IMG/VR virus record: IMGVR_UViG_3300047160_003799
Strand: one strand, 5' to 3'
Origin: a virus
DNA: 64,000 nucleotides
Each line of letters starts with the position of its first letter. The stretch's first letter is position 1. The notes under the pieces were generated by a model that was not told the origin of the DNA, ran no database searches, and was given only the letters and a program-made list of their open reading frames with translations. Below, piece by piece: positions 1,090-55,066 of this stretch. The translations under genes and the position numbers were made by a program.

Positions 1090-1161
1090 TCGGGGCAGCG
1101 GGGATTGAACCCGCGACCTTTAGGTCCCAAACCTAACGCTCTTCCACTGAGCTACGCCCCG
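1090..1161 (-). tRNA. tRNA-Pro (anticodon TGG)
   Basis: RC: CGGGGCG..GCTC-AGTGGAA-GAGC..TTAGG-TTTGGGA-CCTAA..GCGGG-TTCAATC-CCCGC-TGCCCCG. Confidence 0.85.
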
Positions 1162-1399: not shown

Positions 1400-1472
1400 T
1401 GGGTCCGCTCGGACTCGAACCGAGATTGTTCTCCTTATGAGGGAGGGGCCATAACCGTTAGGCGACGGACCC
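1400..1472 (-). tRNA. tRNA-Met (anticodon CAT, anticodon loop CTCATAA)
   Basis: RC: acceptor GGGTCCG/CGGACCC, T-arm CTCGG-TTCGAGT-CCGAG, anticodon loop C-T-CAT-A-A. Confidence 0.8.
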
Positions 1473-2529: not shown

Positions 2530-2775
2530 GAGATAAGGCTGTAGGGATCCGTTCGGGTCCAGCTCTCCGTTCCTTCATCATCTCCGCGAGCGCATCCTCC
2601 TCATCTACGGGAGCACGCATGGTAGGGGAAAATCATGAGCTTGTCAAGAGGCTAGTCCATAAGGGGTTAGGTCCCTCGCCAGAAAAAAGTGTATCTACCT
2701 GTTGTTTGCCGACAGGAGAGGTGTATCGTGGCGTTCGTGGGCGATACGAGGGGAAGACAAGAAAGGACGAGGACC
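2530..2775. promoter_or_regulatory. divergent intergenic region between leftward and rightward gene blocks (probable divergent promoters)
   Basis: 246-bp non-coding gap between a minus-strand gene and the first plus-strand gene; contains TTG..-like hexamers but no confident -35/-10 call. Confidence 0.3.
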
Positions 2776-4200
2776 ATGAGACTCAGCTACGAGATCCCCG
2801 CCGAGAACCTTCCCGAGCTGGAGAAGAAGATGGGTCTCCTGCAGAAGCGTGTCGCGAAGCTGGTCGCGAAGGGCTTCAAGCTCGACGGCGAGATGGTCGG
2901 GCTCAAGGTCATGGATAAGGGCGTGGTCAAGCCCGCGCCTGGCGAGGATCCCGAGCACCCCACGAAGTTCGTGTCCTACAGGCTGGTTGAGGTCACTGGC
3001 GACACGCCCAAGGTTTCGGGCTGGGAGTTCATCGCGACACTCCAGCACGAGGACGGTGGCACGATCCTGCGTCCGCTCCCGACTTCCGACGTGGCTGACC
3101 GTGAACTGGACCCGTTCCGCGCTGCGAGCCCTGTCTGCGATCACTGCGGGTTCAATCGCCGTCGCAACAACACCTACGTCGTCCGTAACGTGGACACGGG
3201 CGAAATGAAGCAGGTCGGCTCGACTTGCCTTGGCGACTTCCTGGGCACGGGCCAGAACCCGCACATGATCGCCACCTACGCTGAGCTGCTCGTGGCCGTG
3301 AAGCGGATGGTCGAGGCCGCGCGCGAGTTCAAGGGTGCGGTTTCCACGCGGACCCTGGTTCCGTTCGAGGAGTTCCTCGCGGCGTGTGTGTCCGTCGCCC
3401 GCGAGAACGGCTTCGTGTCCAAGGGCGAGGCGTGGAGGAGCAACGGTGCCAAGGTCGCGACCGCTTCCCTGGCGTGGCGCGCGATGTTCGTGACCGATCC
3501 CAAGAGCTACGACTTCGTCCAGGTCTCCGAAGACGACGTGCGCTGGGCGCAGAAGATCCTGGCTTGGGGCGAGGCGCGGCTGCAGGACGACGCTGAGCTG
3601 AACGACTACGAGCACAACCTTCGCGTGGTGGTCTACAGCGGCTACGTGGACACTTCCACGGCGGGTATCGGGGCGAGCCTCCTCAGCTACTACAAGCGGG
3701 AGCGCGAGGTCAAGCAGGGCCAGAACCAGCACAGCGAGCACTTCGGGACTGTCGGGAAGCGCGAGAGCTTCGTCCTGACCGTCAGGAGTGTCAAGGAATT
3801 CGACAGTCGGTTCGGGCTCCGCAAGCTGGTCACGTTCAATGACCCGAAGGGCAACGTGGCGATCTGGTGGACGGGCGCGGGCTCCTTCAAGAAGAGCGAC
3901 GAGGGTAAGACTTACATTATCAAGGCGACGGTCAAGGACCACACTGTCTGGGGTCAGCACAACCTCAAGCAGACCGTCCTGACCCGCGCGACGGTCGAGG
4001 GGCGCGTCGAGCTTCCCCCGACTCAGGCTTCCGAGCCCGTGAAAGAGGCCCAGAAGCCCGTTGCGGCCCCTTCCGTGAAGCGCGCTCGCCCCTGGGAACG
4101 GCGGTATTTCCGCGCTCCGAACGTGAACGTTGTCGAGCCTGCGCCAATCGAAGAGGAGAACGGCATGGGCCGTGCGGATGGGCAGGGTCGCGCCGCGTAG
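2776..4200 (+). CDS. hypothetical protein with internal Cys cluster (CDHCGF...GSTCLG)
   Basis: ORF track frame. ATG at 2776 preceded by AAGGACGAGGACC; 475 aa from this start. Confidence 0.6.
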   Translation: MRLSYEIPAENLPELEKKMGLLQKRVAKLVAKGFKLDGEMVGLKVMDKGVVKPAPGEDPEHPTKFVSYRLVEVTGDTPKVSGWEFIATLQHEDGGTILRPLPTSDVADRELDPFRAASPVCDHCGFNRRRNNTYVVRNVDTGEMKQVGSTCLGDFLGTGQNPHMIATYAELLVAVKRMVEAAREFKGAVSTRTLVPFEEFLAACVSVARENGFVSKGEAWRSNGAKVATASLAWRAMFVTDPKSYDFVQVSEDDVRWAQKILAWGEARLQDDAELNDYEHNLRVVVYSGYVDTSTAGIGASLLSYYKREREVKQGQNQHSEHFGTVGKRESFVLTVRSVKEFDSRFGLRKLVTFNDPKGNVAIWWTGAGSFKKSDEGKTYIIKATVKDHTVWGQHNLKQTVLTRATVEGRVELPPTQASEPVKEAQKPVAAPSVKRARPWERRYFRAPNVNVVEPAPIEEENGMGRADGQGRAA

Positions 4201-4233
4201 TGCGGTAAAAGGCCGAGAGAAGGAGATAGGCAA

Positions 4234-4752
4234 GTGGGTAAGAAGAACGATCACGACGCGGCTGGAGCCATGTTCGCCGCCCTGCTGGGCGGCGGGCTGG
4301 GCGACAAGGTGGAGACCATCGGGCCGTTTTCCATTCCGCGTCCTGCGATGAAGTACGACTCGATGGAGCAGGCCACCGCTCATGTCCTGAATGCCTTCAT
4401 GAACGACATCAGCGGCTACCTCAACTCGTTGGAGGACATGATCCGAATCGTGAACTCCACGCTCCAGTACAAGCCCGAAACCATTGCGCCCGCTCTCAGG
4501 ACCAAGCTGGAAAAGCTCGTGGCCCATTACGAGGAGCTGCAGGAAACGGCGGCAGCTTTCCGTCGCGAGGTGTTGTCCAACGGTGATGTGCTGTTCAAGG
4601 GCATCACGAAGGAATTCGAGGACAACCTCAAGGAGCTGCAGAAGCAATGGGGGCTCTACAAGGAAGGCAAGCACCCCCGTCTGGTGGCGGCTGCGGCCCA
4701 GCTCAAGGTCGAAGAAGGGCGGAAGAAGAGGGAGAAGGGCAAGGCTGCGTAG
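4234..4752 (+). CDS. hypothetical protein (172 aa)
   Basis: ORF track; GTG start after GGAGATAGGCAA. Confidence 0.55.
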   Translation: MGKKNDHDAAGAMFAALLGGGLGDKVETIGPFSIPRPAMKYDSMEQATAHVLNAFMNDISGYLNSLEDMIRIVNSTLQYKPETIAPALRTKLEKLVAHYEELQETAAAFRREVLSNGDVLFKGITKEFEDNLKELQKQWGLYKEGKHPRLVAAAAQLKVEEGRKKREKGKAA

Positions 4753-4785
4753 CCTACGTGGGAAGGGGCGACTAGGAGGTCTACC

Positions 4786-5085
4786 GTGCTCTTTGTGCCG
4801 CGTGAGGTCTACGAAGTCGTCAAGAACACCCGTAAGTGGGCTACCTTCCCGATCTTGGAGGTACGCCGCGATATCGGTAACGGCAAGCCTCAGACTGGCC
4901 TGCTGCTGGCTGAGGACGTGGAGAGCGGGGCTGGCGTGGTCTACGACGGAGACGCCTACGACTACCTTGCCATGCCTCACAAGGAGGTCTATAGCCGCAT
5001 CCGTGCGCGCGTCGTTGTTGGCTCATACCTCGATGTCGAGGAAATGATCGAGGAGGGCTGGGAGCCCGATGAGGTGCTGCCATGA
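4786..5085 (+). CDS. hypothetical protein (99 aa)
   Basis: ORF track; RBS GGAGG upstream. Confidence 0.5.
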   Translation: MLFVPREVYEVVKNTRKWATFPILEVRRDIGNGKPQTGLLLAEDVESGAGVVYDGDAYDYLAMPHKEVYSRIRARVVVGSYLDVEEMIEEGWEPDEVLP

Positions 5086-8864: not shown

Positions 8865-9340
8865 AGGCACGGACGCGGAAGCTCATCCATCTCCTCAAGG
8901 GCGGATACCCTGTTGTCGCTGACCTTCCCTGGCTCAAGGGGAACGTCTTTGGCTACAACGAGGAGCGGAAGGTCTTCCGCGTTCGTGAGGGGGCAGTAAC
9001 ACTTGAGATTCCATTCGAGGCACCAGAAAGAACGGATGTGGTGCTGGCACCTATCGAGGGAACGTGGACGTTGTGCCTGCCAGCTCACCTGCGGGTGAGA
9101 AACGCGCTCCGCGAGGGAACCCTCAAGAGGATCCACGTCAACCAGCACCACATCCGCGCCAACATGAAGGATGGGCTTGACCGTCCGATCTTCACCGTGA
9201 AGGTAGGCAAGCTCAACTTCTACGGGCGGCAGGTCAGAATTCTGGGACCATCCGAGCTGATTTACCGCCCGTGCAACCCCCTCTCTTGCGGGGCAATGGC
9301 ATGGGTCGAGACCCGTGCCGAAGTCGAGGTGATCCCGTAG
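8861..9340 (+). CDS. hypothetical protein (~159 aa)
   Basis: GTG 8861 in frame of ORF 8840..9340, overlapping previous stop. Confidence 0.5.
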   Translation: MKARTRKLIHLLKGGYPVVADLPWLKGNVFGYNEERKVFRVREGAVTLEIPFEAPERTDVVLAPIEGTWTLCLPAHLRVRNALREGTLKRIHVNQHHIRANMKDGLDRPIFTVKVGKLNFYGRQVRILGPSELIYRPCNPLSCGAMAWVETRAEVEVIP

Positions 9341-9407
9341 GTTAAGTAAAATCTCACTCGCTGCTTTACCGCGCGCTATCTTGCGATATGGTCGCGATAG
9401 GTGAGTT

Positions 9408-9752
9408 GTGAGCGTCAAAGGAACGGTTTACCTGCTTCACTTCGAGACGCCTTACAAGCACGCGGGACACTACATCGGCTGGACCAAGACACCTGCTGAG
9501 GAGCGCATGGCGCTACACGTTAGCGGGCGGGGCTCGCCTTTGGTTAAGGCAGCGGTCGGTGCGGGCTCGAATGTGCTGCTGGTTATGACCTGGGAGGACG
9601 AGGATCGGCATTTCGAGCGCGCCCTGAAAGAGCGACACAACGCCAAGGGGATCTGCCCGAAGTGCCGCGCCGCTTACAACGAGAAGGCCCGCAACAGGAT
9701 GCGGGAAACCCGAGCCAACGCGAGGAGTGTGTATCGTGAACGAGCAGCCTAA
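9408..9752 (+). CDS. GIY-YIG-like nuclease domain protein (free-standing, 114 aa)
   Basis: TVYLLHF(x10)HYIGWT then R and E downstream fits GIY-(10-11)-YIG spacing; CPKC Zn knuckle at C-terminus. Confidence 0.45.
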   Translation: MSVKGTVYLLHFETPYKHAGHYIGWTKTPAEERMALHVSGRGSPLVKAAVGAGSNVLLVMTWEDEDRHFERALKERHNAKGICPKCRAAYNEKARNRMRETRANARSVYRERAA

Positions 9753-10041
9753 GCCCGAGGTCGGTATGGGCGCCAGCCGTGGCTACGGATCGGACTCCTA
9801 CCCCGCTACCATCGTCAAGGTCAGCTCCTCTGGCAAGACACTCTGGATCGAAGAGGACGACTACACGTTCAATCCCAAGGCTGGGGAGCACGAGGACAAG
9901 TACATCTACTCGCGCCGCCCTGGCGGCAGACAGTTCAAGTACACGCTGCGTCAGGACGGCATGTTCCGCGAGGTGGGCGCCAGGCGTGGAGGGACGCTGG
10001 GCATCGGCTTCCGTAGGTTCTACAACGACCCGTGCTTCTAG
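9727..10041 (+). CDS. hypothetical protein (104 aa)
   Basis: ORF track; alternative GTG start at 9736. Confidence 0.45.
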   Translation: MCIVNEQPKPEVGMGASRGYGSDSYPATIVKVSSSGKTLWIEEDDYTFNPKAGEHEDKYIYSRRPGGRQFKYTLRQDGMFREVGARRGGTLGIGFRRFYNDPCF

Positions 10042-23368: not shown

Positions 23369-23649
23369 AGCATCACAACTGGACAGATAGACGAACTGGT
23401 AGAGCTATTCCGCCTCCTATTGGTAAACGAATCGTGAAGCCCAAGCTTGTGCCTGAGCCTGGGCTCCGCGATCTCCGTACCTGCTTCCGCTGCTCTGCAC
23501 AGGCTCAAGCATTGGTAGAGGTTGAAACCTCAAGCGGAAGAACCACCTTTCCGTTCTGTAAGACTCACTTAGACACCTATCGGCTCGAACAGAAGGAACA
23601 GGGTAGGGAAGTGAAAATAACACTTTTTTCGAGGTTGCCGAAGCTCTGA
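23365..23649 (+). CDS. small Zn-finger protein (94 aa)
   Basis: ORF track; CFRC...CKTH. Confidence 0.45.
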   Translation: MKHHNWTDRRTGRAIPPPIGKRIVKPKLVPEPGLRDLRTCFRCSAQAQALVEVETSSGRTTFPFCKTHLDTYRLEQKEQGREVKITLFSRLPKL

Positions 23650-23751
23650 TGTCGGCGGTAACTGGTAGACTACTGGCGTTGCCTACACGGGCTATATTGC
23701 GCATTGTGCGCAGTACCCTCAATTTAGGCAACATTCTACGAAGGAACCCTA

Positions 23752-25130
23752 TGAGCAACACAGAGAACATCGAAGTCGTAATCTCATTCGACACCACAGG
23801 CTCAATGTATCCCGTCCTCACGCAAGTCCGACGCAATGTGGAAGACGTTGTCAACCGCCTCTTCCGCGAGATCCCCAACATCCGTATCGGCGTCATTACG
23901 CATGGATGCGCCCACGACGGTCCTCCTCGCTATCAGGACTTGACAGACAACCGCAATTCCCTCATCGACTTTATCCGCAACGTCCCTGCCACGGGCGGCG
24001 GTGGAGCGCACGCTTCCTACGAGCTGGTGCTCCAGAAGGTTCGCTCGTTCGCCTGGACGCTTGGCAAGAGCCGCGCGCTCATCATGATCGGTGACGAGCC
24101 GCCCCACGAGCCTCATGGCCTTTTCGGCAGGCGTGCAGAGACAGGCGATGACATTCCTAACTGGCGTGAGCAGCTCGATGCCCTTGCCAGGGATAGTGTC
24201 CACGTCTACGGTGTCCAGGCGCTCAACAACTCCTATGCAGAGGACTTCTATCACGCTCTTGCACAGGTGTCAGGCGGCGCCTACATGCGCCTCAACCAGT
24301 TCGCCTCTGCAGTGGACTTCATCCTCGCCATCGCGTTCCGCCAGATCTCTCCTGAGCGCCTCAAGACGTTCGAGGAAGAGGTCGTTCGCGAAGGTCGCTT
24401 TGACCGCAGCTACGACGAGATGTTCTCGGCGCTCGACCCCACGCGCGCCAGGAAGGTCGCGAAGAAGCTTGGCCTCACGCCTGTCCCGAATGGTCGCTTC
24501 CAGATCATCGATGTGCCCGCTCAGAACGAGATCGAGCGCCTCAATCGAGCTGGAAAGACCGCTCTTGCGGATCGCATCACGATCATGGAGCTGGTGGAAA
24601 GCCTTGGTATCCCCTTCAAGGAGGGCAATGGCTTCTACGAGTTCAACAAGCGTGAGGAGATCCAGTGGTACAAGGAAGTCGTCGTGCAGGATCGTACCAC
24701 GGGCGATCTCTACAGCGGAGACGCAGCTCGTGATATGGTTGCGCTTCCGAAGTCCTCGTCTCACGTCAACGCGACGATCAAGCCTGAGAAGTTCGGTGAG
24801 TGGCGGGTGTTCGTGCAGAGCACAAGCAACAATCGCATCCTCGCCCGCTTCGACAAGGGCTTCCAGTTGCCGTCGAAGTTCCTCTACGACGTGAGCGGCG
24901 ACTACAATCTGCCTATCAACGGCCCGCCGCAGGGCGTGTCGGCTGCGGACTTCTACGGCTCGAAGAGCAAGGGCACAAAGAAGAAGCCGACGACGAAGGC
25001 GAAGAAGCCCAAGGCCCCGCCCGTTGCTGTAACCCATCCCTCGTCGGGATTGGGGCAGCGGACGAAGGCCAAGGCAACGCGGGGAAACACCTCGCGCACC
25101 ACCAAGAAGGTGGGAACAAGGAGTAGATGA
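23752..25130 (+). CDS. von Willebrand factor A (vWA) domain protein with Lys-rich C-terminal tail
   Basis: ATG 23752; MIDAS motif ISFDTTGSM (DxSxS variant); C-terminus KSKGTKKKPTTKAKKPKAPP. Confidence 0.65.
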
Positions 25131-27595: not shown

Positions 27596-27613
27596 CTCGT
27601 ATCTACATTTCTA

Positions 27614-27686
27614 GCCCACATAGCTCAACTGGTAGAGCACTTCATTTGTAATGAAGATGTTGGGGGTTCGACTCCCTCTGTGGGCT
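27614..27686 (+). tRNA. tRNA-Thr (anticodon TGT)
   Basis: Acceptor GCCCACA/TGTGGGC, D-arm GCTC-AACTGGTA-GAGC, anticodon arm CTTCA-TTTGTAA-TGAAG, T-arm GGGGG-TTCGACT-CCCTC. Confidence 0.85.
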
Positions 27687-27713
27687 TGTTCGTTTTCAAA
27701 AGGGGGGATTCCA

Positions 27714-28901: not shown

Positions 28902-29378
28902 ATGGCCTTCTTCAACAGCGAAGAGGAAAGACAAACGTTCCTGCGGAAGTTCGACATCCCGCCTCCGATGAAGAAGCTCATCGTAACGGACGGCGAAGGA
29001 AAGCCCTATCTCACGCGATACGTGGTGAACGAGGCGCCAGACGGTAGCAAGGTCTACTTGCACTTCATCCACCAAAGCGACGACGATAGGGACTTCCACG
29101 ACCATCCCTGGGACTGGCATAGTGAGATCATCAAGGGCTCCTACAAGGAGTTCAGGCCAGAAAGCTCCACGATCTTCAAGCCTGGCGATGTGAATGTGAA
29201 GGTCGCAGAGCAGCTCCATAGGCTCGTGGTCCTCGAAGGTCCCGTCATCACGATGGTCTTCCGTGGACCAAAGCGCAGAGAATGGGGCTTCCAGACACCA
29301 GGCAAGCCATGGGTCCACCACGAAACCTATCTTGACCAGAAGTTCGGCAAGGGCAAGTGGTCGAAGGAGTACGAATGA
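28902..29378 (+). CDS. hypothetical protein (158 aa) with HDHPWDWHS motif
   Basis: ORF track; AGGTGAGGTGAAAT RBS. Confidence 0.5.
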   Translation: MAFFNSEEERQTFLRKFDIPPPMKKLIVTDGEGKPYLTRYVVNEAPDGSKVYLHFIHQSDDDRDFHDHPWDWHSEIIKGSYKEFRPESSTIFKPGDVNVKVAEQLHRLVVLEGPVITMVFRGPKRREWGFQTPGKPWVHHETYLDQKFGKGKWSKEYE

Positions 29379-33891: not shown

Positions 33892-34656
33892 TCAGATGCA
33901 GGGGTCCGCTGCCAGCCGCTTTTTCGAGATGGCTGAGAAGAACGGATCGAATTCCATCCCGATGTAGTGGCGCTTTAATCGCTTTGCCGCCACGAGAAAG
34001 CTTCCGCTTCCACAAGCGTTATCGAGCACGACGGCCCCTTCGTTCGTGAAGGTCTTGATGAGGTATTCGCCAAGAGCAACTGGCTTCTGCGTGGGGTGCG
34101 TGTGGATCGGATCGTCGTTGTTCACCACTGGAATTGCGACCACAGAGGTAGGGTAACGCTCTGTGCTTCCGCCGCCACTATGTTCCTTGCTCTTGCCGTA
34201 ATTGGTGCTGGAAGTGCGGCTAGTGAAGGCGTGGACGGGTGAATGTCCAGTCGTCTTCTGCGGATTGTAGACGGGCTGTTTGTCGTAGAAGATGAGGATA
34301 TCTTCGTGGCAGCGAAGAGGTTGCTTCTTCGCATTCAAGTGCCCACGAACCTTATTCTTCTTCCATACTAGCGAGTACTTGTAGATAGACTCGCCTGCTA
34401 GCATCAGTTTAGCTGAGAAGAGACCGTAGCCTGTCAGAGCAATCACGCCATTTGGTTTGAGTATCCTTCGATATTCAGCCCATAGAGGCTCCATCGGGAT
34501 TGTGGAGTCCCATGGGTTCTGCGTGTGTCCGTAAGGCAGATCGCAGAGGATGAGATCAATGCTCGCATCGTCTACGAATGGCAGGATAAACAGGCAATCA
34601 CCTGTAAGAACATAATCCGTTAGCACGACAACCCCCTCTTGAGTGAAACCGCCCAT
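33892..34656 (-). CDS. DNA methyltransferase, beta-class N6-adenine/N4-cytosine (motif IV DLPY before motif I)
   Basis: IDLILCDLPYG (DPPY-type motif IV) near N-terminus and VLDNACGSGS (FxGxG motif I) near C-terminus = beta-class permutation. Confidence 0.75.
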   Translation of the reverse strand: MGGFTQEGVVVLTDYVLTGDCLFILPFVDDASIDLILCDLPYGHTQNPWDSTIPMEPLWAEYRRILKPNGVIALTGYGLFSAKLMLAGESIYKYSLVWKKNKVRGHLNAKKQPLRCHEDILIFYDKQPVYNPQKTTGHSPVHAFTSRTSSTNYGKSKEHSGGGSTERYPTSVVAIPVVNNDDPIHTHPTQKPVALGEYLIKTFTNEGAVVLDNACGSGSFLVAAKRLKRHYIGMEFDPFFSAISKKRLAADPCI

Positions 34657-34698
34657 CTCACCGTAATAGGTGAGATGGGCGTTAAGGCGGGAGACTTC

Positions 34699-34837: not shown

Positions 34838-37800
34838 TTACTCGAAGGCTCCAATCGATGGTGCCGTCGAAGAGCGGACGACGCCGATGATATCTAGCGG
34901 GCAGACCGTGTTAGCGAAGCCCTTGCTCTTGGCTGGACTACCTGCCACGAGCGCGTACTTCGCCTTAGCATCTGCTAGGCCCATAACTCCAGTTGGACTC
35001 TCGTTGACGAGAACCTGAGCACTCGTAACAACGTCGCTTGCAAGCGGGAATGACGGGAGCGCAGGACCAGACTGGCCGTTGAAGCTACCCTTCCAGAGAT
35101 CGTTGGAGACCGTCATGGTTAGGTCGCTATTGCCATCATTCTCAGCATATAGCGGCTTGCCTGTAGCGATGATCAGGTTGTTACGGACATCTAGGCCATA
35201 GTTCCCGATCTGCGTTCCAGAGCCAGATCCGCCCCACGTTGGGCGATAGACGACGAAGCTCGACTGAGTGACGATGGTGTTGTTGTAGATCTGCGCGCCT
35301 TGGATTCCACGGAACTCGATGCAGGAGTCCGTATTGTTGCAGATGAGGTTGTTACGGTAGATCTGGTTGACAGCTTCGACCTTCGGGTTCATGTGGTTTG
35401 GATCGAAGAACGATGCGCCAGTGTCACCGCCGCACATGATAGCTGCAGCCTTGATGATGCCGCTGATGAGGCAATCCTCTACGAGCAAGTTCTCTGAACC
35501 ACCCTTGAAGAAGATGCCTGGGCAAGTGAGGGAACCGTTGACTCCATCGTGGAGCCAGCAACGGCGCACGACGGCATGACGAACGGCGACAGCATCTACG
35601 ATGGCGTTCGATAGTGAACCCGAGAAGTCGCAATCCTCAAGATAGAGGCCATCCACAGGATTGAACGAAGAACCGCTATAGACACCAGCGATCTTGATCG
35701 AGGCGCCTACACCAGATGCCATCGCCTTGCTTGTGACATTGCGCAGAATGAGGTTCGATGCAGGGCCAACAACGTGGATGTTATTGCCCTTACCGTTGAT
35801 GACCGTGAGGTTCTGCACAAGCACGTTGGAAGCCTGGACAGCCATCTCGCCAGTGTTCTTGAGGTCGATGATAACGGTGGCTCCTGCTGCACCACGGACG
35901 ATAGACCAAGCCGCCGCCGTCCCTGACTTCGTGATGCCAGGGTAGTTCGACCCGTCGTAGGTTCCAGCAGCCAGTTCAACAATCGTTCCTGGGGCGACCT
36001 TGTTGAAGGCGTTCTGGACGTTACCTATCGACGGATCGACGGCGACAACATTGGTTGCCCCCACGACGGTCGGAGCCGTGAACCATGCTGGTTCGCCTGG
36101 GCTCGGAGTCGGGGTAGGCGTTGGTGTCGGTGTAGGAGTAGGTGTCGGCGTTGGAGTCGGTGTCGGAGTAGGCGTTGGTGTTGGAGGAGATGGAGTAGGT
36201 GTTGGAGGCGTCGGTGTTGGCGTAGGGGGTGTCGGAGTCGGTGTTGGTGGTGTTGGAGTTGGCGTAGGTGGTGACGGCGGGCCACCACCTGGAGGTGCAT
36301 CGCCCTTCTGCGTTAGGAAGTAGGCGTTGTACCACATCTGCCAAGCGAAGTAACGAGGCTTGCCAGCGAACTCCGACGCCTGGATCTTGTTGTACTGCCC
36401 GTATGCGCGGAGGCACGACTGTTGAGCAAGAGTCTTCTTCGTAGCTGGGTCTGGGCAGTATGCAGCGTGCTGCGAGACATAGAGCGGCGTCGAGCTACCA
36501 GCCTGATTGACCCACATCGTCAGATCTGGCGTATTCGACACAGAGTCATAGCAGACAACAAGGTTGCTGTTCTGACCACCAGTCGGATCCGTCCACGGGA
36601 ACCCGATAACCTGCAGATACGCTTGCTGCTGGTTGTAAGACATCTGAGCGAGGGACACATCGCCAGTAACCTGAGCAGCTACACGGAGAGCGTGCATGAG
36701 CATCGTATCTTGGAACGACGCGATGCCAGGGAAGCCGACGAAGTTATAGGTCGTTGGCCCCGTAATGAGCAGCGCTCCAGAAGCGTTCTTGAAGTTCGCG
36801 TTCTTCGGGAAGAGAACTCGAAGATCCGAACCTGCTGGCTGGTTATCGAATGTTCCACTTCCGTTGACATAGAACTTCGGCATCGAGATGAAGCCGTTGT
36901 AGACTGGCGCAGCCTTGATGCCAGCAATGACGGCCTGGATCTGAGGCATTACGTTACGGATGCCGATCTTCTGCTGGTAGTAGGCGAGGCACTGGAGCGG
37001 ACGTGCTGCTCCACGAGTCTCAACGTACTTCGTCGGAAGCTGAGCAGACGACGTGATGAAGTCAAGCAGACGGTTGATCGCGTCGAGCGTCGGCTGGTCC
37101 TGGTTATCAACGTACCAGTCAACGAGACCCATCATGTAGAAGTGAGTCTGGTTGGCGAAAGCCTTGCCTGACGCTGGCACAGAGTAGACGTTGACCATCC
37201 AGTCATGCTCGTACTGAGCTTGCTTGAGGAAGCCGAGATTACCTGTGCGCTTGTAGAGGCGATAGTAATCGCGGAGGTCATCCGACTCTGTATCCCACTC
37301 TACGTTAGTAGATGTGCTCTTGTTCTGCTTCGGCACGAACGAGGCGTAGCTCGCTTGGAGATCTGCAACAGTTGTGTTGAAGCCAAGAGAGTTGTACCAA
37401 GCAACCTCTTCATCCTCAGTCATCCAGTCCGTCGAGGCAGGATAGCCCCAGATGCCACCGCTTGGCGGCGACGGTGTTGGAGTCGGGGGAGACGGAGTTG
37501 GTGTAGGCGGCGAGGGTGTTGGCGTCGGAGGAGAAGGCGTGGGTGTAGGCGGGGAAGGTGTCGGTGTCGGGGGCGACGGAGTAGGAGTCGGAGGAGACGG
37601 TGTTGGTGTAGGAGGCGAAGGTGTTGGTGATGGCGGCGACGTAACTGTGAAGTCGCCTGCAGGTAGGTCAGCCATACCTGCTGCATTTACCGTGACTGGA
37701 CCTGTGACCGCATTTGCGGGAACTGGCAGAAGAAGTGTGCTTGTAGTGCCTACGTCGGTCCTCTGCAAGTTCTGAGTTGAGGTCGAACCAGAGAACGTGA

Positions 37801-38242
37801 CACCAACAGGAGTCGGAAGATTCTCGCCAACGATTGTTACTGGCGTTCCAACAGGCCCCGATGTAGGTGACATCGAGTCGATGATTGGAGTTGGCGTCGG
37901 TGTAGGTGTGGGCGGGCTAGGTGTTGGAGTCGGTGGCGATGGTGTTGGCGTAGGAGGAGACGGGGTAGGTGTCGGAGGTGAAGGAGTAGGAGTAGGCGGG
38001 GAAGGTGTAGGAGAAGGCGGGATTGGCGCATTCTGCTGAATGAGCCAGTTGTAGTAACCAACCGCCGAATAAAGATCCGCCTGGACTTGATTGAGAAGTC
38101 CAGCGAGCTTGTTAACCTGGAATGGGTTCAATGTGATGGGATACGTCACATCGTCCTGAGCATGGAATTGCTCTATCAGGGACGAGAAGTCGAAAGTAGG
38201 TCCTGTGTCTGTCATGGCAATTCCTTTGTGGGCTAGGTGCAA
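34838..38242 (-). CDS. large multi-domain protein with three Pro-Thr linkers, TIG/Ig-like module and C-terminal right-handed beta-helix (pectate-lyase fold): tailspike/depolymerase-like
   Basis: ORF track. (PTPSPPT)n linkers at three sites. VTIVGENL...VTFSGS Ig-like segment. C-terminal repeats NNTIV / RNNLI / NIHVVG / EDCDFSG typical of parallel beta-helix. Confidence 0.7.
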   Translation of the reverse strand: MHLAHKGIAMTDTGPTFDFSSLIEQFHAQDDVTYPITLNPFQVNKLAGLLNQVQADLYSAVGYYNWLIQQNAPIPPSPTPSPPTPTPSPPTPTPSPPTPTPSPPTPTPSPPTPTPTPTPIIDSMSPTSGPVGTPVTIVGENLPTPVGVTFSGSTSTQNLQRTDVGTTSTLLLPVPANAVTGPVTVNAAGMADLPAGDFTVTSPPSPTPSPPTPTPSPPTPTPSPPTPTPSPPTPTPSPPTPTPSPPTPTPSPPTPTPSPPSGGIWGYPASTDWMTEDEEVAWYNSLGFNTTVADLQASYASFVPKQNKSTSTNVEWDTESDDLRDYYRLYKRTGNLGFLKQAQYEHDWMVNVYSVPASGKAFANQTHFYMMGLVDWYVDNQDQPTLDAINRLLDFITSSAQLPTKYVETRGAARPLQCLAYYQQKIGIRNVMPQIQAVIAGIKAAPVYNGFISMPKFYVNGSGTFDNQPAGSDLRVLFPKNANFKNASGALLITGPTTYNFVGFPGIASFQDTMLMHALRVAAQVTGDVSLAQMSYNQQQAYLQVIGFPWTDPTGGQNSNLVVCYDSVSNTPDLTMWVNQAGSSTPLYVSQHAAYCPDPATKKTLAQQSCLRAYGQYNKIQASEFAGKPRYFAWQMWYNAYFLTQKGDAPPGGGPPSPPTPTPTPPTPTPTPPTPTPTPPTPTPSPPTPTPTPTPTPTPTPTPTPTPTPTPTPSPGEPAWFTAPTVVGATNVVAVDPSIGNVQNAFNKVAPGTIVELAAGTYDGSNYPGITKSGTAAAWSIVRGAAGATVIIDLKNTGEMAVQASNVLVQNLTVINGKGNNIHVVGPASNLILRNVTSKAMASGVGASIKIAGVYSGSSFNPVDGLYLEDCDFSGSLSNAIVDAVAVRHAVVRRCWLHDGVNGSLTCPGIFFKGGSENLLVEDCLISGIIKAAAIMCGGDTGASFFDPNHMNPKVEAVNQIYRNNLICNNTDSCIEFRGIQGAQIYNNTIVTQSSFVVYRPTWGGSGSGTQIGNYGLDVRNNLIIATGKPLYAENDGNSDLTMTVSNDLWKGSFNGQSGPALPSFPLASDVVTSAQVLVNESPTGVMGLADAKAKYALVAGSPAKSKGFANTVCPLDIIGVVRSSTAPSIGAFE
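36098..36288. repeat. PT-linker coding microsatellite 3 (GGTGTNGGNGTNGG... repeats)
   Basis: Read directly; encodes PPTPTPTPTPTPTPTPTP on minus strand. Confidence 0.7.
37462..37642. repeat. PT-linker coding microsatellite 2
   Basis: Read directly; encodes SPPTPTPSPPTPTPSPPT... x8. Confidence 0.7.
37889..38030. repeat. PT-linker coding microsatellite 1
   Basis: Read directly. Confidence 0.7.
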
Positions 38243-42215: not shown

Positions 42216-42638
42216 TTACCGATTCCTACGAAGTGCTTCCTCGATCTCCGCTATGTTGCCTCGCTCGATGTAGAACCATTGATCCTTCATAGGATCTTTC
42301 GAGCCAAGGTAGAAAGCCATGTCCTTGGTCTCATACTCGAAGATACAGAGAATAGCCTCATTGCCATCGGCATCACACGACTTGAATCCTGAGAAGCGCT
42401 GAACCTTCGCGTCTTCATCGTTGGTTCGAGCCTTGTGGTAAGCTCGCTTCAAGGCGTCATCGATGTCGAGCTTCGGAGTAGAAGGACGTGGCTTCTTCGG
42501 AGGTGTAGCATCGTCGTCATCAAGCTTTTGTGGATCTGCCTTTTTCTCTGGTGGCTTGGTCTGATCCTGCGAGCCAGCGAAAAGCCCAGAGGCAAGAACC
42601 AGTGACAGAGCCCAACAGAAGACCAACGACTTCCTCAT
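42216..42638 (-). CDS. secreted protein (signal peptide; 140 aa)
   Basis: ORF track; MRKSLVFCWALSLVLASGLFAGS. Confidence 0.5.
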   Translation of the reverse strand: MRKSLVFCWALSLVLASGLFAGSQDQTKPPEKKADPQKLDDDDATPPKKPRPSTPKLDIDDALKRAYHKARTNDEDAKVQRFSGFKSCDADGNEAILCIFEYETKDMAFYLGSKDPMKDQWFYIERGNIAEIEEALRRNR

Positions 42639-45133: not shown

Positions 45134-45992
45134 AGACCACTATCTGCTGTCTCGGAGAGAAGAGAGCAATGACTTGCCACATCTTCTGAGCCGTGAATGT
45201 GAAGCGGTTGCGATGCTTCTGGTTGATCCTGATAGGCGTGATGATCTCGTTCTCACCGACCTGCTCTGGCGTTGAACCTGGAACTGCTGGGTTGACACGT
45301 GAGCGCCCGAGCGAATCGAAGTTGACACCGTAGATGTCGTAGAGCCCTTGGTCAGTAACAGGGCCAGAAACGCTTGTCGTGAACTGCTGGTGCAAGTACG
45401 CTTGGAATTCTGGATCGTTCACGTCCGCTGGCTTACCCTTCCAGTTGAACGGCGGATATTCTGGTGACGGGTATGGTGGTGGAAGGTTCCTATCGACAGG
45501 CGAGAACGGGTAGTCGGAGAACTCGTTGACGTAGCCTGCTGGCGTTCTCTTTGGCTTGCAGCACGGTGGCTTCGGATAGTCGATTGAAACGACGCACATC
45601 CCGTAGCCGTTCACCGTAGGAATGCTGTTCGGTGTGATGTACCAGAAAAGCTGCTGCCATGGCGAATGAAAACGTACGCTGCCTACAGGAATCGTGAACG
45701 ACTGGACAGGGATGGTCTTTGAGAAAGGGTCAGGCCAATTAGGAATGGCTGTGTCAAGCTCGACGTAAGGCACGTGCTGCTTATCTAGCAGATACTTGAC
45801 CTTATCCATCTCATTCGCATAGACAGCTCTGAACGCCCCATCTAGATCATGGGTCTGCTTGAGCTGGAGCTGCTGGTCGTACTCTTGAACCTGGTTAGTG
45901 ATCGCGAGTTTCTGGCTGTTCCAGGCTTGGTAGGCAGCTTCGAGATTATCTTCGGCAGAGGGCATCGATGATCTCCCTTGGGCTCTCACCAA
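45114..45992 (-). CDS. hypothetical protein (292 aa)
   Basis: ORF track. Confidence 0.5.
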   Translation of the reverse strand: MVRAQGRSSMPSAEDNLEAAYQAWNSQKLAITNQVQEYDQQLQLKQTHDLDGAFRAVYANEMDKVKYLLDKQHVPYVELDTAIPNWPDPFSKTIPVQSFTIPVGSVRFHSPWQQLFWYITPNSIPTVNGYGMCVVSIDYPKPPCCKPKRTPAGYVNEFSDYPFSPVDRNLPPPYPSPEYPPFNWKGKPADVNDPEFQAYLHQQFTTSVSGPVTDQGLYDIYGVNFDSLGRSRVNPAVPGSTPEQVGENEIITPIRINQKHRNRFTFTAQKMWQVIALFSPRQQIVVYDTRCS

Positions 45993-47244
45993 AGATGATC
46001 TTCGCTACGACTGACGAAAGGGACTCACCAAGATCCTTCGGATAGAACCACTTCATTGTTTCGTGACGAAGCTGCTTGTCGTGTCGCCAACGCACTTGAG
46101 CTGCATAAACATACTGATCTGGGTTTCTGACGCCCATACGCGAGAGCCCACCCTTGAGTAGATCTACAAGCCGCTCTGCGACGACTCTGCGCTTCGCAAA
46201 CATCGACCACTTACCATCGCCTGGTACGTTAGGCGTGACTTCTTCGATCTTCCTTCCAGCCGATGAGTGCTTGAGGAGACCGTCAACAAAGGCAGCGTCG
46301 GGACCACCACCAAGGGCGGCGCCTACTCCATGTGTGCTCATAATCTGCGTGCCAAGCGGTCGAAGACCAGACTTCTCTCTGAGCTGCTTGACGTTTTTGA
46401 TCGTGATCCTATAGATAGGTGGCCTATCGTCGCCCTCGACTTCGTGCTGGCGCCTCTGGCTAAAGTTCTCGCACCAACTGTTAGGGCACTTGATGAGCGA
46501 TGGATCGTTCATCTTCTCGTCGGCTGTATTACGAGTACGACGAGCTAGAGGATGGTCACACTTTGGGCAACGGATGTCATCGTCCTGCGCTTCGTCCATA
46601 GCTTCCTGCTTCCCGATGTAGTCAGCTAGCCAGCGAACCTGTTCAAGCGTATGCTGCCCTTTACTCTTGTTAGCTAGATCCTTCTCGACGGCATCCATAT
46701 CACCGTCGTGACTAGCGTATAGGCAAAACACTTCTGCAAAATCTTCTTGCGGATGAGCCTGAGCGTACTTACTGACGAAGCTCGTATCGTTCGGTTTGAC
46801 GCCTGGCTTGCGCTTGTAAACCTTGTGGTAGTCTCCAAACAAGGAGAGGAACTCAGGGCTGCGCCGTACTTCATCAGAGATCTTCTGCGTAAGAAACTTG
46901 TGCCCTAGCTCGTGCATGACCAGGTTGAGCAAGCCACCTTTGACTGAACCTGGAAAGTTCTTATCGCGCTTGTCTAGGTAGACAGGCTGGCCTTGATCTG
47001 ATGCCTCACTGCCACCGCGAGTCGGTTCAATGCGGTAGTCTAGCTCAATACCGAGCCGTTGGAGCTTGGCATCAGCTTCGGCTTTCAAACGCTCCAGCTC
47101 TCTAGGCATCAAGGCGGCTCCTGTTGCAACCACCGACGACCGCAGAGAGCACACCATCGGTTCGGTATGAGATCCTCGTAGTGCTTCTGCTTCGGCTTCT
47201 CTGTTAGAAACGAGCGGACATACATCTCGTGACCTTTGGGGCAA
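45946..47244 (-). CDS. SprT/Wss1-like or DUF4157-like HExxH metallopeptidase-domain protein with Zn-ribbon
   Basis: LLNLVMHELGHKFL plus CPKCDHPLARR...CPNSWC. Confidence 0.45.
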   Translation of the reverse strand: MPQRSRDVCPLVSNREAEAEALRGSHTEPMVCSLRSSVVATGAALMPRELERLKAEADAKLQRLGIELDYRIEPTRGGSEASDQGQPVYLDKRDKNFPGSVKGGLLNLVMHELGHKFLTQKISDEVRRSPEFLSLFGDYHKVYKRKPGVKPNDTSFVSKYAQAHPQEDFAEVFCLYASHDGDMDAVEKDLANKSKGQHTLEQVRWLADYIGKQEAMDEAQDDDIRCPKCDHPLARRTRNTADEKMNDPSLIKCPNSWCENFSQRRQHEVEGDDRPPIYRITIKNVKQLREKSGLRPLGTQIMSTHGVGAALGGGPDAAFVDGLLKHSSAGRKIEEVTPNVPGDGKWSMFAKRRVVAERLVDLLKGGLSRMGVRNPDQYVYAAQVRWRHDKQLRHETMKWFYPKDLGESLSSVVAKIIFGESPREIIDALCRR

Positions 47245-53100: not shown

Positions 53101-53372
53101 GCGCCTGAGTCTCCCGTCGCTATCGTGCTCTTGATGGTCGGCGTGCCTTGAGGATGCTGCTTCGGAACGAACTGCCGTGGTGTCTGAGTCTTGGCCTTCT
53201 GCTTCTGAGCTTGACCCACCTGAGTTGGATCAACTGGTGGCTCTGGCTCTGGTGGTGGTGAGGCTTGCTGAGGAGCTGTTGACGGAGGCACGTTCTGGCC
53301 TTGCTCGATGATGGAGCGAGGGCTTGTGCCAGCGATGATAGCTGCAAGTACTTCGGATAGGTTCATCGCCAA
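53097..53372 (-). CDS. leader-B family small protein (MAMNLSEVLAAIIAGTSPRSIIEQ), Pro/Gln-rich
   Basis: ORF track. Confidence 0.45.
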   Translation of the reverse strand: MAMNLSEVLAAIIAGTSPRSIIEQGQNVPPSTAPQQASPPPEPEPPVDPTQVGQAQKQKAKTQTPRQFVPKQHPQGTPTIKSTIATGDSGA

Positions 53373-55066
53373 GTCTCCTGTCGATCATTGACCCACCAAT
53401 GCCAACGATCATCGGTAGGGCGCGGAGGCTCATCGATCAGGATGATGACGTAGCGTTCTGGCAAGCCCATGAAACGAGAGATCCAACGTTCTTGCTCTGG
53501 AGATCCTCCAGTCTGTCCACGGCGCCAGTTGGCGGCTGCTTCATCGAAAGCATTGACGTGGAAGCAGTGGATGATGGCTCTGTGCCCATCGTTGGTTCGT
53601 GGCTGTGCGAAGAAGACAGAACCAAGATCGCCCTGCGGCTGCGACCCTTGCCTATCCCAGACCGTGTGACTATCAGGTGTGTGCTCGTTCGCCAAGTACC
53701 GAAAATGACGGTGATTCGCTATGTTGGAAATCTCCGTAAATAGGTCAGCGAACGACACGGCGATTCTATAGTTGTGGATCTGGTCGCGGAGCTTGTTGAA
53801 GGCAGAAACAAGGCTTGCCTCGAACGCTGGGCTACGAGCTTCACTCAACTCGTCCTCATAGACGTTGAGCTTGAACTTAGAGGCTAGCGTCTTGCGAATC
53901 TCCTTCGAGATCGTCTCTGGATCTTCCGTCGTATCGACGTGCTCGTAGTTCTCCTGAGTTGGCAGAAGCTCGTGATAGAGCTTCGCAGCCTCGTGCTGGT
54001 AGTGCATCGCGCTCTCCTCTTTGCTCTTGGAGTAGCCGATGTCCATGCCAGAGCCGTAGTAGGTGAGGCCCTTGCCCTTCATGAGCCGTGAGAAGGCGAT
54101 CTCATCGCTTACGTCACAGTGGAAGATGATGTCTGGGCGCCGCATGTCGTGATAGGCCGCTTCGATGATGCCAGGATCGGCACCACGGAGCTTGTCCCTT
54201 ACGAGGCTCGTATAGACATAGCGGTCGGAGAGCACGATAGCGTTGCGCTTGAGCGCAGGTTCGATGACAGTCTCGTAACGTGCTACTAGATCCGAAGCAT
54301 GAATCAAGCTATACATCGTTGGCGTAAGGATGCGCTCGTCCTTCGCCTTTCTGATTGTATCCTTCAAGAGATCGGATGAGGCCCACTTCGTTGTTACGAC
54401 CTCGTGGCCTTGATCCTCAAGCCAGTTGACGAGCGCCTCTACCTGTGTGCTCTTGCCCGCACCGTCTATACCCTCGAAGACAATCAATAGGCCCTTGCCG
54501 CCATCATCGGCAAACATCTTGTCGGCCATGGCGGCAAGGTCCGATGTGTCCTCCGCCTCTTCGACCTTATGTGGGTTGAAAAGCTGGTGAGCAGCCCGAT
54601 AGACGTACTGGTTGCTGTGGAAGGCGAGCTTAGGCAAGTCCTCAAGAGGACACCAATAGCCGTCCTTCAAGTCCGAACCAGATTCGGCCTTCTCGTCGTC
54701 ACGAACTTCGCTGTAGAAGATGTGATCGTGTACGTCTCGGCCAGCTTCGGGGCTCTTACGAACGGTTAGCTTCGTAAGCTCGTCTGGCTTGCGCTTGATT
54801 GCCGTCTCTTCGCCTAGCTCACGGCAAGCGGCTTCTTCGGGGGTCTCGCCGTCGTCAACGTGACCGCCAGCGAAGAGCCACTCTTTGCCGTCCTTGAACC
54901 CGCCCTTGTGTCGGCCTATGAAGGTCTCGATGGCCTTACTAGTCTTACGCAGGAGGATGATGGAGGCGACGTGCTTTGGAGCATCCTTGCGTTCGAGCAG
55001 AGACTCAACAACCGCTGTAGCAGCCGTTCCGTGGAGGATAGAGGAGATCTGCTCGTTGAGGTCCAT
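53363..55066 (-). CDS. Nudix hydrolase - thymidylate (dNMP) kinase fusion protein with leader-B N-terminus
   Basis: Nudix box GGHVDDGETPEEAACRELGEETAI (GX5EX7REUXEEXGU); P-loop LLIVFEGIDGAGKSTQ and DRYVYTS (TMK DRY/F motif); ~200-aa extra C-terminal domain. Confidence 0.7.
   Translation of the reverse strand: MDLNEQISSILHGTAATAVVESLLERKDAPKHVASIILLRKTSKAIETFIGRHKGGFKDGKEWLFAGGHVDDGETPEEAACRELGEETAIKRKPDELTKLTVRKSPEAGRDVHDHIFYSEVRDDEKAESGSDLKDGYWCPLEDLPKLAFHSNQYVYRAAHQLFNPHKVEEAEDTSDLAAMADKMFADDGGKGLLIVFEGIDGAGKSTQVEALVNWLEDQGHEVVTTKWASSDLLKDTIRKAKDERILTPTMYSLIHASDLVARYETVIEPALKRNAIVLSDRYVYTSLVRDKLRGADPGIIEAAYHDMRRPDIIFHCDVSDEIAFSRLMKGKGLTYYGSGMDIGYSKSKEESAMHYQHEAAKLYHELLPTQENYEHVDTTEDPETISKEIRKTLASKFKLNVYEDELSEARSPAFEASLVSAFNKLRDQIHNYRIAVSFADLFTEISNIANHRHFRYLANEHTPDSHTVWDRQGSQPQGDLGSVFFAQPRTNDGHRAIIHCFHVNAFDEAAANWRRGQTGGSPEQERWISRFMGLPERYVIILIDEPPRPTDDRWHWWVNDRQETWR

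Follow-up and report, generated by a model that had tools for sequence, protein, structure and literature searches.

In the usual description, a phage depolymerase is a rigid trimeric tailspike built on a beta-helix and carrying one activity. The tailspike and capsule depolymerases K5 lyase (2x3h), CBA120 TSP2 and Klebsiella KP34p57/K1 lyase have a right-handed parallel beta-helix domain of catalytic type in common with the protein analyzed here, which is encoded on a 64-kb stretch of DNA (the window) from a large uncultured phage. Compared with these enzymes, however, the phage protein has no recognizable particle-binding N-domain, tail-module context or C-terminal trimerization module, and it adds long flexible Pro-Thr (PT) linkers and an (alpha/alpha)6 head. 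PT-linked secreted bacterial CAZymes of the cellulase/xylanase type likewise carry several catalytic and Ig-like modules on Pro-Thr linkers, a tether logic also seen in the cellular relatives of both heads. Unlike those enzymes, the phage protein lacks a signal peptide and a CBM, is phage-encoded and begins with an orphan helical N-terminus. A literature search for PT-linked or two-domain phage depolymerases returned nothing specific. With moderate confidence, we propose that the product of this gene is a two-headed depolymerase, carried by the phage and directed at host-envelope polysaccharide, a flexible enzyme rather than a rigid trimeric tailspike.

The 1134-aa ORF of the preliminary description is real and has TTG as its first start codon. 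An ATG at residue 10 (window position 38215) is preceded by AAAGGA with a 6-nt spacer; judged from these sequence features, the true start is likely this ATG and the product 1125 aa long. As listed in Table 1, the modules follow in the order helical N-terminus, PT1, IPT/TIG, PT2, six-hairpin barrel, PT3 and beta-helix, and domain mapping thus bears out the PT-linked modular architecture, Ig-like domain included, that had been read from the sequence. The Ig-like insert matches PF01833 over residues 120–189 (E = 1.1e-5, 25.7 bits), above the gathering cut-off of 20.9 bits. The models suggest a protein made of two different polysaccharide-degrading modules on flexible Pro-Thr tethers, both modules being kin to bacterial cell-surface enzymes. 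Across the databases searched, the fusion of the six-hairpin and beta-helix heads was found in this protein only. We rejected an assembly chimera through PT3, because exact repeats in the linker DNA are no longer than 14 nt, base composition is uniform along the whole ORF and phage genes continue on either side. A promoter and terminator scan around the gene gave nothing beyond shuffled expectation.

Table 1. Positions in the window of the ORF, its modules and associated sequence features.
Feature	Residues	Window position	Strand	Remarks
Whole ORF		34838..38242	-	1134 aa from first TTG, stop codon included
Shine-Dalgarno-like AAAGGA		38222..38227	-	6 nt upstream of ATG 38215; read from sequence
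N-terminal orphan module	10-74	38021..38215	-	Helical, 65 aa, phage-specific
PT linker 1	75-119	37886..38020	-	(PPTPTPS)n
IPT/TIG Ig-like domain	120-200	37643..37885	-	Pfam PF01833
PT linker 2	201-261	37460..37642	-	(PSPPTPT)n
(alpha/alpha)6 six-hairpin barrel	262-654	36281..37459	-	Probable carbohydrate-active enzyme
PT linker 3	655-715	36098..36280	-	
Right-handed parallel beta-helix	716-1134	34841..36097	-	Pel9A-like (PL9/PL6-like lyase superfamily)
Spurious GV-rich/R-rich ORFs antisense to linkers		36000-36323, 37452-37775, 37797-38039	+	

The three P/T/S linkers provide 167 flexible residues in total between the N-terminus and the beta-helix, and their earlier coordinates agree with ours within about 10 nt. 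The preliminary description regarded the linker DNA as near-perfect microsatellites prone to slippage, a view that the DNA contradicts. At the peptide level the repeat (PTPTPSP)n is nearly perfect; the DNA that encodes it is synonymously scrambled, with TRF matches of 68–84% and shifted copies only 61–77% identical. At period 21, identity at codon positions 1 and 2 is about 0.9–0.98 in PT1 and PT2, and position 1 identity is 0.52 in PT3, the later part of which is a PT dipeptide run; third codon positions are near chance (0.22–0.29). Exact repeats extend to words of 9, 11 and 14 nt at most. Slippage-proneness is therefore unsupported, and linker length did not differ in L032, an independent metagenome contig of 1880 bp (sample Ga0306920) that matches PT1 and PT2 at 100% identity. 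The predicted spurious ORFs opposite the linkers were confirmed. The statement that PT linkers are rare in phage proteins holds only in part, given that at least 120 IMG/VR contigs, a lower bound, contain DNA coding for (PT)8.

The C-terminal domain had been read as a parallel beta-helix of depolymerase type with a pectate-lyase fold, and Pfam, structure prediction and structural neighbors all agree, placing it in the pectate-lyase superfamily. The best structural neighbors are monomeric bacterial lyases, not tailspikes. Pel9A (PDB 1ru4) is the most similar, at only 18% identity, a fold-level likeness that does not imply pectate as the substrate; in contrast to Pel9A, the phage beta-helix is embedded in a 1125-aa multi-domain protein. 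In local Pfam scans, the window domain matched the generic PF13229 only, and its relatives (set A3) matched only PF13229, Chondroitinas_B and NosD, with Chondroitinase_B found in 28 of 45; nearly all of the relatives carry a precomputed PF22842 (Pel9A-like_beta_helix) annotation. Sequence-profile links lead to the PL6/PL31 alginate lyases, which have an N-terminal cap motif in common with the phage beta-helix. A scan of IMG/VR with the beta-helix gave no match. Cellular relatives include a lipoprotein with a 140-aa S/T/G linker (L003) and a protein from a Planctomycetota MAG (P0033) with a signal peptide, two Ig-like domains and poly-Pro linkers, and SLH domains are present in 21 of the 45.

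The beta-helix family displays an invariant Asp/Glu/Lys/Arg ladder along successive coils, on which D883, H898, D899, K913, E956, R963 and D972 are invariant at the level of the sequence alignment. In the Pel9A structure, the Ca2+ site is reportedly formed by D209, D233, D234 and D237, with K273 as the catalytic Lys. Where the family has the acidic motif D[FC]DD, the phage copy has NNTD (D969N and D971T, with D972 kept), and in all 21 of 109 family-conserved columns are altered. Such substitutions could be taken to indicate a non-catalytic adhesin, with one enzyme fold or both reduced to pure carbohydrate binding. We find this scarcely credible, as the strictly invariant residues of both the beta-helix and six-hairpin families are all kept, and the altered positions also vary among close cellular relatives.

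The middle domain of ∼400 residues, previously left unassigned, is confidently predicted by structure prediction to adopt an (alpha/alpha)6 six-hairpin barrel. It is probably a second catalytic module, which would make the protein two-headed, a feature that the preliminary description did not foresee. The barrel is common to AGE/cellobiose 2-epimerases, the GH88 unsaturated glucuronyl hydrolase (1vd5), GH105 YteR (1nc5) and YPO2471 (7tem), although the phage head is only 6–15% identical to these structures. Epimerases, isomerases and enzymes that do not act on glycans are also built on the six-hairpin fold. No Pfam model or PDB sequence matched the domain, even with profile searches, and PF07470 and related models (GH88/GH105) did not match it either. 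When 32 family members were scanned individually against Pfam, one gave Glyco_hydro_88 (E = 0.077) and seven gave weak matches to the GH127 catalytic domain. No usable link to known families emerged from searching PDB by sequence and by profile, from Pfam or from a profile search against 5.8e9 proteins. The family is rare, with about 33 clusters among those 5.8e9 proteins, one contig in an IMG/VR scan, none in a scan of GTDB genomes and no significant viral match in a BFVD fold search. Its members conserve Arg, His, Tyr, Asp and Gln at helix N-termini. Cellular members are tethered, occurring in lipoprotein or poly-Pro forms, and one (P0016) adjoins GT2, YfhO and DegT-type glycan-synthesis genes.

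GH88 and GH105 enzymes act downstream of lyases in known pathways, and a similar activity would suit fusion with a lyase-like beta-helix. However, the six-hairpin and beta-helix families lie within 10 kb of each other in no locus examined, and the former was not found in GTDB representative genomes carrying the latter; a coupled two-step pathway therefore has no conserved association. The gene after the L001 homologue, considered as a possible partner of the beta-helix, proved unrelated and was rejected.

The helical N-terminal module contains an amphipathic heptad-like stretch (LNPFQVNKLAGLLNQVQADLYSAVGYYNWLIQQ), and its sequence suggests a role in anchoring or oligomerization. No signal peptide, transmembrane (TM) segment or hydrophobic N-terminal segment was found in the phage protein, whereas cellular relatives have lipoprotein or Sec signals. 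Searches with the 65 N-terminal residues against Pfam, PHROGs, PDB sequences and 1.84 billion representative proteins detected no homologue. Three matches from an exhaustive HMMER search were tandem-repeat artefacts and were rejected. An N-terminal module followed by a linker, along with an Ig-like domain, fits virion attachment as well.

In a classical virion-borne tailspike or tail-fiber depolymerase, these 65 residues would dock on the baseplate or tail of the particle, the protein would be a trimer, and the beta-helix would bind the receptor and cut at adsorption. An orphan helical module ahead of a linker is what is expected of an adaptor, the phage protein has no signal peptide, and the phage relatives P0003, P0006 and P0007 likewise begin with short helical segments and a Pro-rich linker; phage Ig-like domains, moreover, are mostly found on virion proteins. 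Against this, neither a known particle-binding domain nor any other protein matches the N-terminus, and no paralogue of it was found on another window protein. Structural (virion) families were not detectable among the 68 ORFs of the window, itself part of a larger genome, and the gene is adjoined by a DNA methyltransferase and orphan ORFs and has DNA-metabolism genes rather than tail genes around it. The long linkers and a second globular enzyme ahead of the beta-helix are unlike rigid trimeric spikes, the closest structures being monomeric lyases, and one phage six-hairpin homologue (L007/L158) has the form of a lipoprotein, incompatible with assembly into virions. A virion-borne spike is thus possible but unlikely, and the tailspike label attached to the protein earlier is not supported, nor is a canonical tailspike. 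Most likely the protein is not a rigid trimeric tailspike, and a flexible enzyme that is released or loosely tethered through its N-terminus is the more likely form.

No INPHARED phage matched the protein or its flanks by tblastn or megablast, and IMG/VR scans with two neighboring proteins were also negative. No deposited phage is close to the window; the other window proteins reach only about 30% identity to those of large or jumbo phages. The six-hairpin family turns up in several phage-like contigs unrelated to one another, and its N-terminal delivery modules there are of three different kinds. The homologue in L004 is also located amid DNA-metabolism genes, with a 92-aa N-terminal-TM protein encoded two genes upstream, while that of the 157-kb viral contig L007/L158 is an exported lipoprotein with a 115-aa PS linker. 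In L156, the homologue closes its block directly after a trio consisting of a 117-aa TM protein, a 70-aa lipoprotein (MRLRSSLLALALAAGCGD) and a 98-aa TM protein. This trio looks like a lysis cassette; since a PHROG scan of the small proteins upstream of the L156 and L157 homologues gave no match, the resemblance is one of topology only. The contigs and the window locus speak for deployment outside the tail.

These arrangements, together with the frequent SLH anchoring of beta-helix relatives at the cell wall, would agree with a lysis-accessory enzyme that, along with endolysin, holin and spanins, dismantles an extra envelope layer from within late in infection. Candidates for this layer are a capsule, a secondary polymer linked to the wall or the glycan that anchors an S-layer; the role would resemble that of mycobacteriophage LysB. 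At the window gene itself, however, there are no adjoining TM or holin-like genes, no endolysin was recognized in the 64 kb and the protein lacks an export signal; with the L156 trio also lacking PHROG matches, we consider an accessory role in lysis distinctly improbable. A broader and still unlikely view is that the six-hairpin family constitutes an unrecognized class of phage “exit” enzymes acting on the envelope from the infected cell, with delivery differing by phage: as a PS-tethered lipoprotein (L007/L158), or from the final gene, placed behind a holin/spanin-like trio (L156). In the window phage, fusion with a captured PL9-like lyase would then yield a single-chain lyase and unsaturated-uronyl-hydrolase machine working in two steps. 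If true, this would establish a new CAZyme family and add a new functional category to the lysis/egress proteins of phages.

Homology to host enzymes had also been named as a sign of contamination or of a prophage boundary. The homologues do prove to be bacterial surface enzymes, but the GC content of the gene is phage-like (0.55–0.57, versus 0.70–0.73 in the closest cellular loci) and phage-type genes flank it on both sides. Contamination and a prophage boundary were rejected on these grounds, which point instead to an old capture. A further alternative is an auxiliary metabolic gene (AMG), a cellulase-style multi-domain CAZyme that would degrade environmental, non-host polysaccharide and provide the host with more carbon during infection. 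The PT-linked multi-domain design is typical of secreted bacterial CAZymes, the gene location is non-structural, and functional soil viral GH AMGs have been reported (PMC6786970, PMC9485262). Yet the protein has no signal peptide and therefore would not be secreted from a living host, no CBM was detected, and the cellular relatives are anchored, one of them in a glycan-synthesis locus and not a polysaccharide-utilization locus. Most viral CAZymes serve core functions: a survey of soil viral CAZymes assigns the majority to entry or lysis, not auxiliary metabolism (10.1101/2024.12.20.629349). An auxiliary metabolic role is highly improbable.

We return to the two-headed depolymerase, which, as modeled, probably strips the sugar coat of the host surface. 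The bacterial relatives of both heads are surface-tethered enzymes with lipoprotein signals, SLH domains or Ig domains, in addition to long low-complexity linkers. The phage may have captured two such host-type enzymes of surface-glycan processing and swapped their membrane or cell-wall anchor for its own N-terminal module. The beta-helix would act as an endo-cutter, probably through beta-elimination, on an acidic exopolysaccharide, capsule or wall glycan, and the six-hairpin head would trim the lyase products or remove a second linkage. The PT tethers could give both heads reach inside a gel-like glycan layer, with the IPT Ig-like domain acting as a spacer. The enzyme might be freed from the lysing cell or stay loosely tethered via its N-terminus, and clearing of the glycan layer would aid both the escape of progeny and the next round of adsorption.

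With two unrelated catalytic folds on disordered tethers, the protein departs from the usual tailspike picture; its design follows the logic of surface and secreted CAZymes of bacteria, transplanted into a phage. The protein also shows that gene calls in databases systematically cut such proteins short behind low-complexity linkers and so conceal their anchors, and it exposes a compact (alpha/alpha)6 family covered by no domain library. Should activity be shown, the protein would supply a candidate for a new CAZy family and a natural bifunctional enzyme degrading biofilm or EPS, and the system would offer a test case for phage depolymerases that serve at exit as well as at entry.

The best-supported reading of the Pro-Thr-linked gene is a bifunctional host-envelope glycan depolymerase that combines two surface enzymes of host type. 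The reading frame is uninterrupted and encodes 1134 aa if read from the first TTG; however, AAAGGA and a 6-nt spacer stand before the ATG at residue 10 (window 38215), making a product of 1125 aa probable. Its three linkers lie where the preliminary description placed them and are the sole P/T/S runs of such kind within the 64-kb window. The N-terminal module (residues 10–74) has no match in Pfam, PHROG or the PDB, and no signal peptide or TM segment. A search of 1.84 billion representative proteins gave three matches, all tandem-repeat junk, and no true homologue; we read its segment LNPFQVNKLAGLLNQVQADLYSAVGYYNWLIQQ as amphipathic and heptad-like. The anticipated Ig-like insert scores above the Pfam gathering cut-off as an IPT/TIG domain. 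For the middle domain, previously left unassigned, AlphaFold2 predicts a six-hairpin (alpha/alpha)6 barrel with paired helices all along (residues 262–654; pLDDT 90.6, pTM 0.90; 32 homologues), while residues 716–1134 are predicted as a regular beta-coil stack (pLDDT 94.8; 45 homologues), in agreement with the parallel beta-helix proposed from sequence.

Features of the Pro-Thr-linked gene and its surroundings in the window
Feature	Residues	Window	Strand	Remark
Target ORF		34838-38242	-	
P/T/S linker PT1	75-119	37886-38020	-	
P/T/S linker PT2	201-261	37460-37642	-	
P/T/S linker PT3	655-715	36098-36280	-	
IPT/TIG Ig-like domain	120-200			Pfam
DNA N6/N4 methyltransferase		33892-34656		downstream of target
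Perfect 13-bp hairpin		34650-34681	-	CGCCCAUCUCACC / GGUGAGAUGGGCG, 6-nt loop
tRNA-Lys(CUU)		969-1043	-	
tRNA-Pro(UGG)		1090-1161	-	
tRNA-Met(CAU)		1400-1472	-	
tRNA-Thr(UGU)		27613-27687	+	

The linker DNA had been described as near-perfect microsatellites prone to slippage and recombination, a view that the sequence contradicts. TRF matches are 68–84% and in-register shifted copies are 61–77% identical, because identity differs by codon position: at period 21, identity in PT1 and PT2 is ~0.9–0.98 for positions 1 and 2 (in PT3, which turns into a PT dipeptide run in its later part, position 1 gives 0.52), whereas position 3 is near chance (0.22–0.29). All four Pro, all four Thr and five Ser codons are interleaved, and exact repeated words reach at most 9, 11 and 14 nt. 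Thus, the peptide is a near-perfect heptad repeat (PPTPTPS / PSPPTPT) encoded by synonymously scrambled DNA. This is the reverse of a slippage-prone tract and likewise speaks against mis-assembly across the linkers. An independent JGI metagenome contig of 1880 bp (Ga0306920_100464787, L032) matches window 36318–38197 at 100% identity, with PT1 and PT2 unchanged in length. Such linkers, said to be rare in phages, are uncommon in viral sequence yet not exceptional: IMG/VR contains at least 120 contigs with (PT)8-coding DNA. Over the linkers there are indeed GV-rich and R-rich antisense ORFs, which are linker artefacts. The 249-aa ORF on the strand opposite the six-hairpin domain (36422–37171, +) was rejected as a false gene, its “conserved” tblastn matches in relative-bearing contigs (L001, L002, L004–L006) being solely a reflection of the conserved sense frame.

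The beta-helix has 44 relatives at 37–59% identity, nearly all with a precomputed PF22842 (Pel9A-like_beta_helix) assignment and 21 with SLH domains. Named sources are Planctomycetota (54%), Acidimicrobiia (~44%) and MAGs of Polyangiaceae and Gemmatimonadales, and no relatives were found in IMG/VR. In PDB sequence space, the family profile matches PL6 and PL31 alginate lyases via the N-terminal cap, and Pfam Chondroitinase_B weakly matches 28 of 45 members. The phage copy retains all strictly invariant residues and 88 of the 109 columns that are ≥90% conserved among relatives. The family motif D[FC]DD, which is NNTD here, also varies in the relatives P0036 (NFND) and P0034/42/49 (DFTD), with D972 invariant. 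Residues D883, H898/D899, K913 (FFKGGS), E956, R963-N964-N965, D972 and R1000 follow a spacing of about one coil in the predicted model and are reminiscent of the Asp/Lys/Arg ladders seen in Ca2+-dependent lyases.

The six-hairpin head belongs to a previously unrecognised family, with 31 homologue clusters among 5.8 billion proteins (39–66% identity), all “hypothetical” and devoid of Pfam domains. Profile searching yielded one extra full-length member and no remote relatives, and member-wise Pfam scans gave only marginal GH127 or GH88 matches; with the patterns used, no relatives were found in 185,579 GTDB representative genomes, and BFVD returned no significant structural match. Every strictly invariant family residue is kept in the phage copy, as are 76 of the 83 columns ≥90% conserved among relatives. 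In the model, conserved polar residues (H367, Y369, D375, R391, E408, R410 and R414, followed by Q511, D512, H517, Y588, Q591, R612 and Y614) sit at the N-terminal ends of successive helices, the likely site of six-hairpin enzyme pockets, and three invariant Arg suggest an anionic sugar. An attractive two-step model is that the lyase-like beta-helix would carry out a beta-elimination and the GH88/GH105-like barrel would then remove the unsaturated uronate, although the lack of any other co-occurrence of the two families weakens it.

The two-head fusion is unique in the databases searched and joins heads of different families: their homologue lists are disjoint, no match to either head is long enough for both, and no fetched locus holds both within 10 kb. 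Many database entries have their start, MTE... or VGATN..., right at the domain boundary, where the DNA shows longer ORFs. The six-hairpin ORF of L007 (9623–11146) encodes 507 aa (called as 374), comprising a lipoprotein signal MKKYVLTFLAILIACAPN, a 115-aa PS/PT linker and the domain; that of L001 (9605–11110) encodes 501 aa with a poly-Pro linker (called as 369); and the beta-helix ORF of L003 (9551–11257) encodes 568 aa (called as 418), with a lipoprotein signal (...LASGCGGG) and a 140-aa S/T/G linker ahead of the domain. All three public calls begin at an internal Met/Val right after the low-complexity linker, a systematic truncation that hides the anchors of relatives and also gives rise to spurious antisense ORFs such as L003 9652–10023. 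In P0033, from a Planctomycetota MAG, a signal peptide, two Ig-like domains and poly-Pro linkers come before a junction, DPAWYKTPTVTGA, that matches the one in the phage protein, EPAWFTAPTVVGA. Lipoproteins include P0004 and P0015, Ig-like N-domains occur in P0009 and P0029, and P0016 adjoins GT2, GMC-oxidoreductase, YfhO and DegT-type genes, a surface-glycan locus. Cellular relatives of both heads are thus tethered surface enzymes, a layout that suggests an ancestral logic of anchor, linker, (Ig) and enzyme in both families, which the phage protein would have kept while swapping the anchor for an orphan N-terminus.

The window looks like a piece of a large uncultured phage. PHROG matches include a DNA-polymerase exonuclease subunit (1.8e-81), RNR large subunit, RNA ligase, 2OG-Fe oxygenase, thymidylate kinase/NUDIX and endonuclease V, and Pfam matches agree with this picture. 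Most ORFs are orphans, four tRNA genes are present, the best phage relatives (~30% identity) have genomes of 140–735 kb, and the window yielded no recognisable capsid, tail or lysis family. Pfam also identifies a Band_7/SPFH protein and a pyridine-nucleotide disulphide oxidoreductase, and a putative zinc metallopeptidase (Peptidase_Mx; 45946–47244, -) and a VWA-domain protein (23649–25130, +) are present. In a 567-aa protein (53363–55066, -), a NUDIX hydrolase domain at the N-terminus is joined to a thymidylate kinase domain. A 140-aa ORF (42216–42638, -), with a signal-peptide-like N-terminus MRKSLVFCWALSLVLASGLFAG and then a charged Pro/Lys/Asp-rich region, is possibly a secreted phage protein. 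In the left half (1–31000), long ORFs overlap on both strands; in one example, 2689–4200 (+) has phage homologues, and the longer 2695–4980 (-), with an unusual codon-position GC of 0.82/0.43/0.63, is probably spurious.

The target gene lies within a long minus-strand block, downstream of orphan ORFs that lack Pfam matches or TM segments. Homology to host enzymes had been proposed as a sign of contamination or a prophage boundary; the gene's GC (0.55–0.57) is like that of the window and unlike that of its closest cellular relatives (0.70–0.73), which indicates an old acquisition instead. The hairpin (dG -27.7 kcal/mol, z -5.9), in the 181-nt spacer 3′ of the gene, buries a Shine-Dalgarno-like GGUGA and the AUG (34656) of the methyltransferase, and may be a U-tract-less terminator or a translational gate. 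The Pro(UGG) and Thr(UGU) tRNAs decode the codons dominating the gene, where Pro codons are 95% non-CCC, Thr codons 91% non-ACC, and 32/32 Lys are AAG. Across 31 minus-strand genes, this single gene accounts for ~23% of Pro and ~22% of Thr codons. The match between tRNAs and codon use is suggestive, though post hoc.

Phage relatives carry the six-hairpin head in other settings, which point away from the tail. L004, a phage-like contig with many small ORFs, a MTase, dCTP deaminase and ThyX, has the head alone (P0003) behind a 33-aa helix and Pro linker. Two further genes shared with the window (window 28902–29378 (+) and 9408–9752 (+) versus L004 4362–4763 and 19847–20119; 45–49% identity) show that the two phages are distantly related. 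In L156, the homologue P0006 is last in its block, directly after three small genes (9149–9991) for a 117-aa one-TM protein, a 70-aa lipoprotein (MRLRSSLLALALAAGCGD) and a 98-aa one-TM protein; by topology the trio looks like a holin/spanin-type cassette, and its proteins have no PHROG match. In L157, the homologue closes a block ahead of a MerR-type gene. In a 157-kb IMG/VR contig (L007/L158) with DksA, TerC, helicase, MTase and HNH genes, the head is a lipoprotein, which cannot be a tail component, suggesting that at least some phages deploy the enzyme from the infected cell's envelope.

These lysis-adjacent and lipoprotein forms, together with the orphan N-terminus, the non-structural gene context and 167 residues of flexible linker, leave the classical tailspike of the preliminary description only partly supported: its beta-helix depolymerase fold stands, and the anchor-like N-terminal module and Ig-like domain favor some attachment or oligomerisation. 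An AMG role is unlikely, as the protein has no secretion signal and such a role would be at odds with a published survey in which entry or lysis is the task of most soil viral CAZymes (10.1101/2024.12.20.629349). As a probable bifunctional depolymerase, the protein is comparable to known phage polysaccharide depolymerases, from which its two-headed PT-tethered architecture and six-hairpin family set it apart as unusual. Should the six-hairpin family turn out to represent a new class of phage egress enzyme, or a single-chain lyase/hydrolase cascade be demonstrated, the protein would gain in significance.
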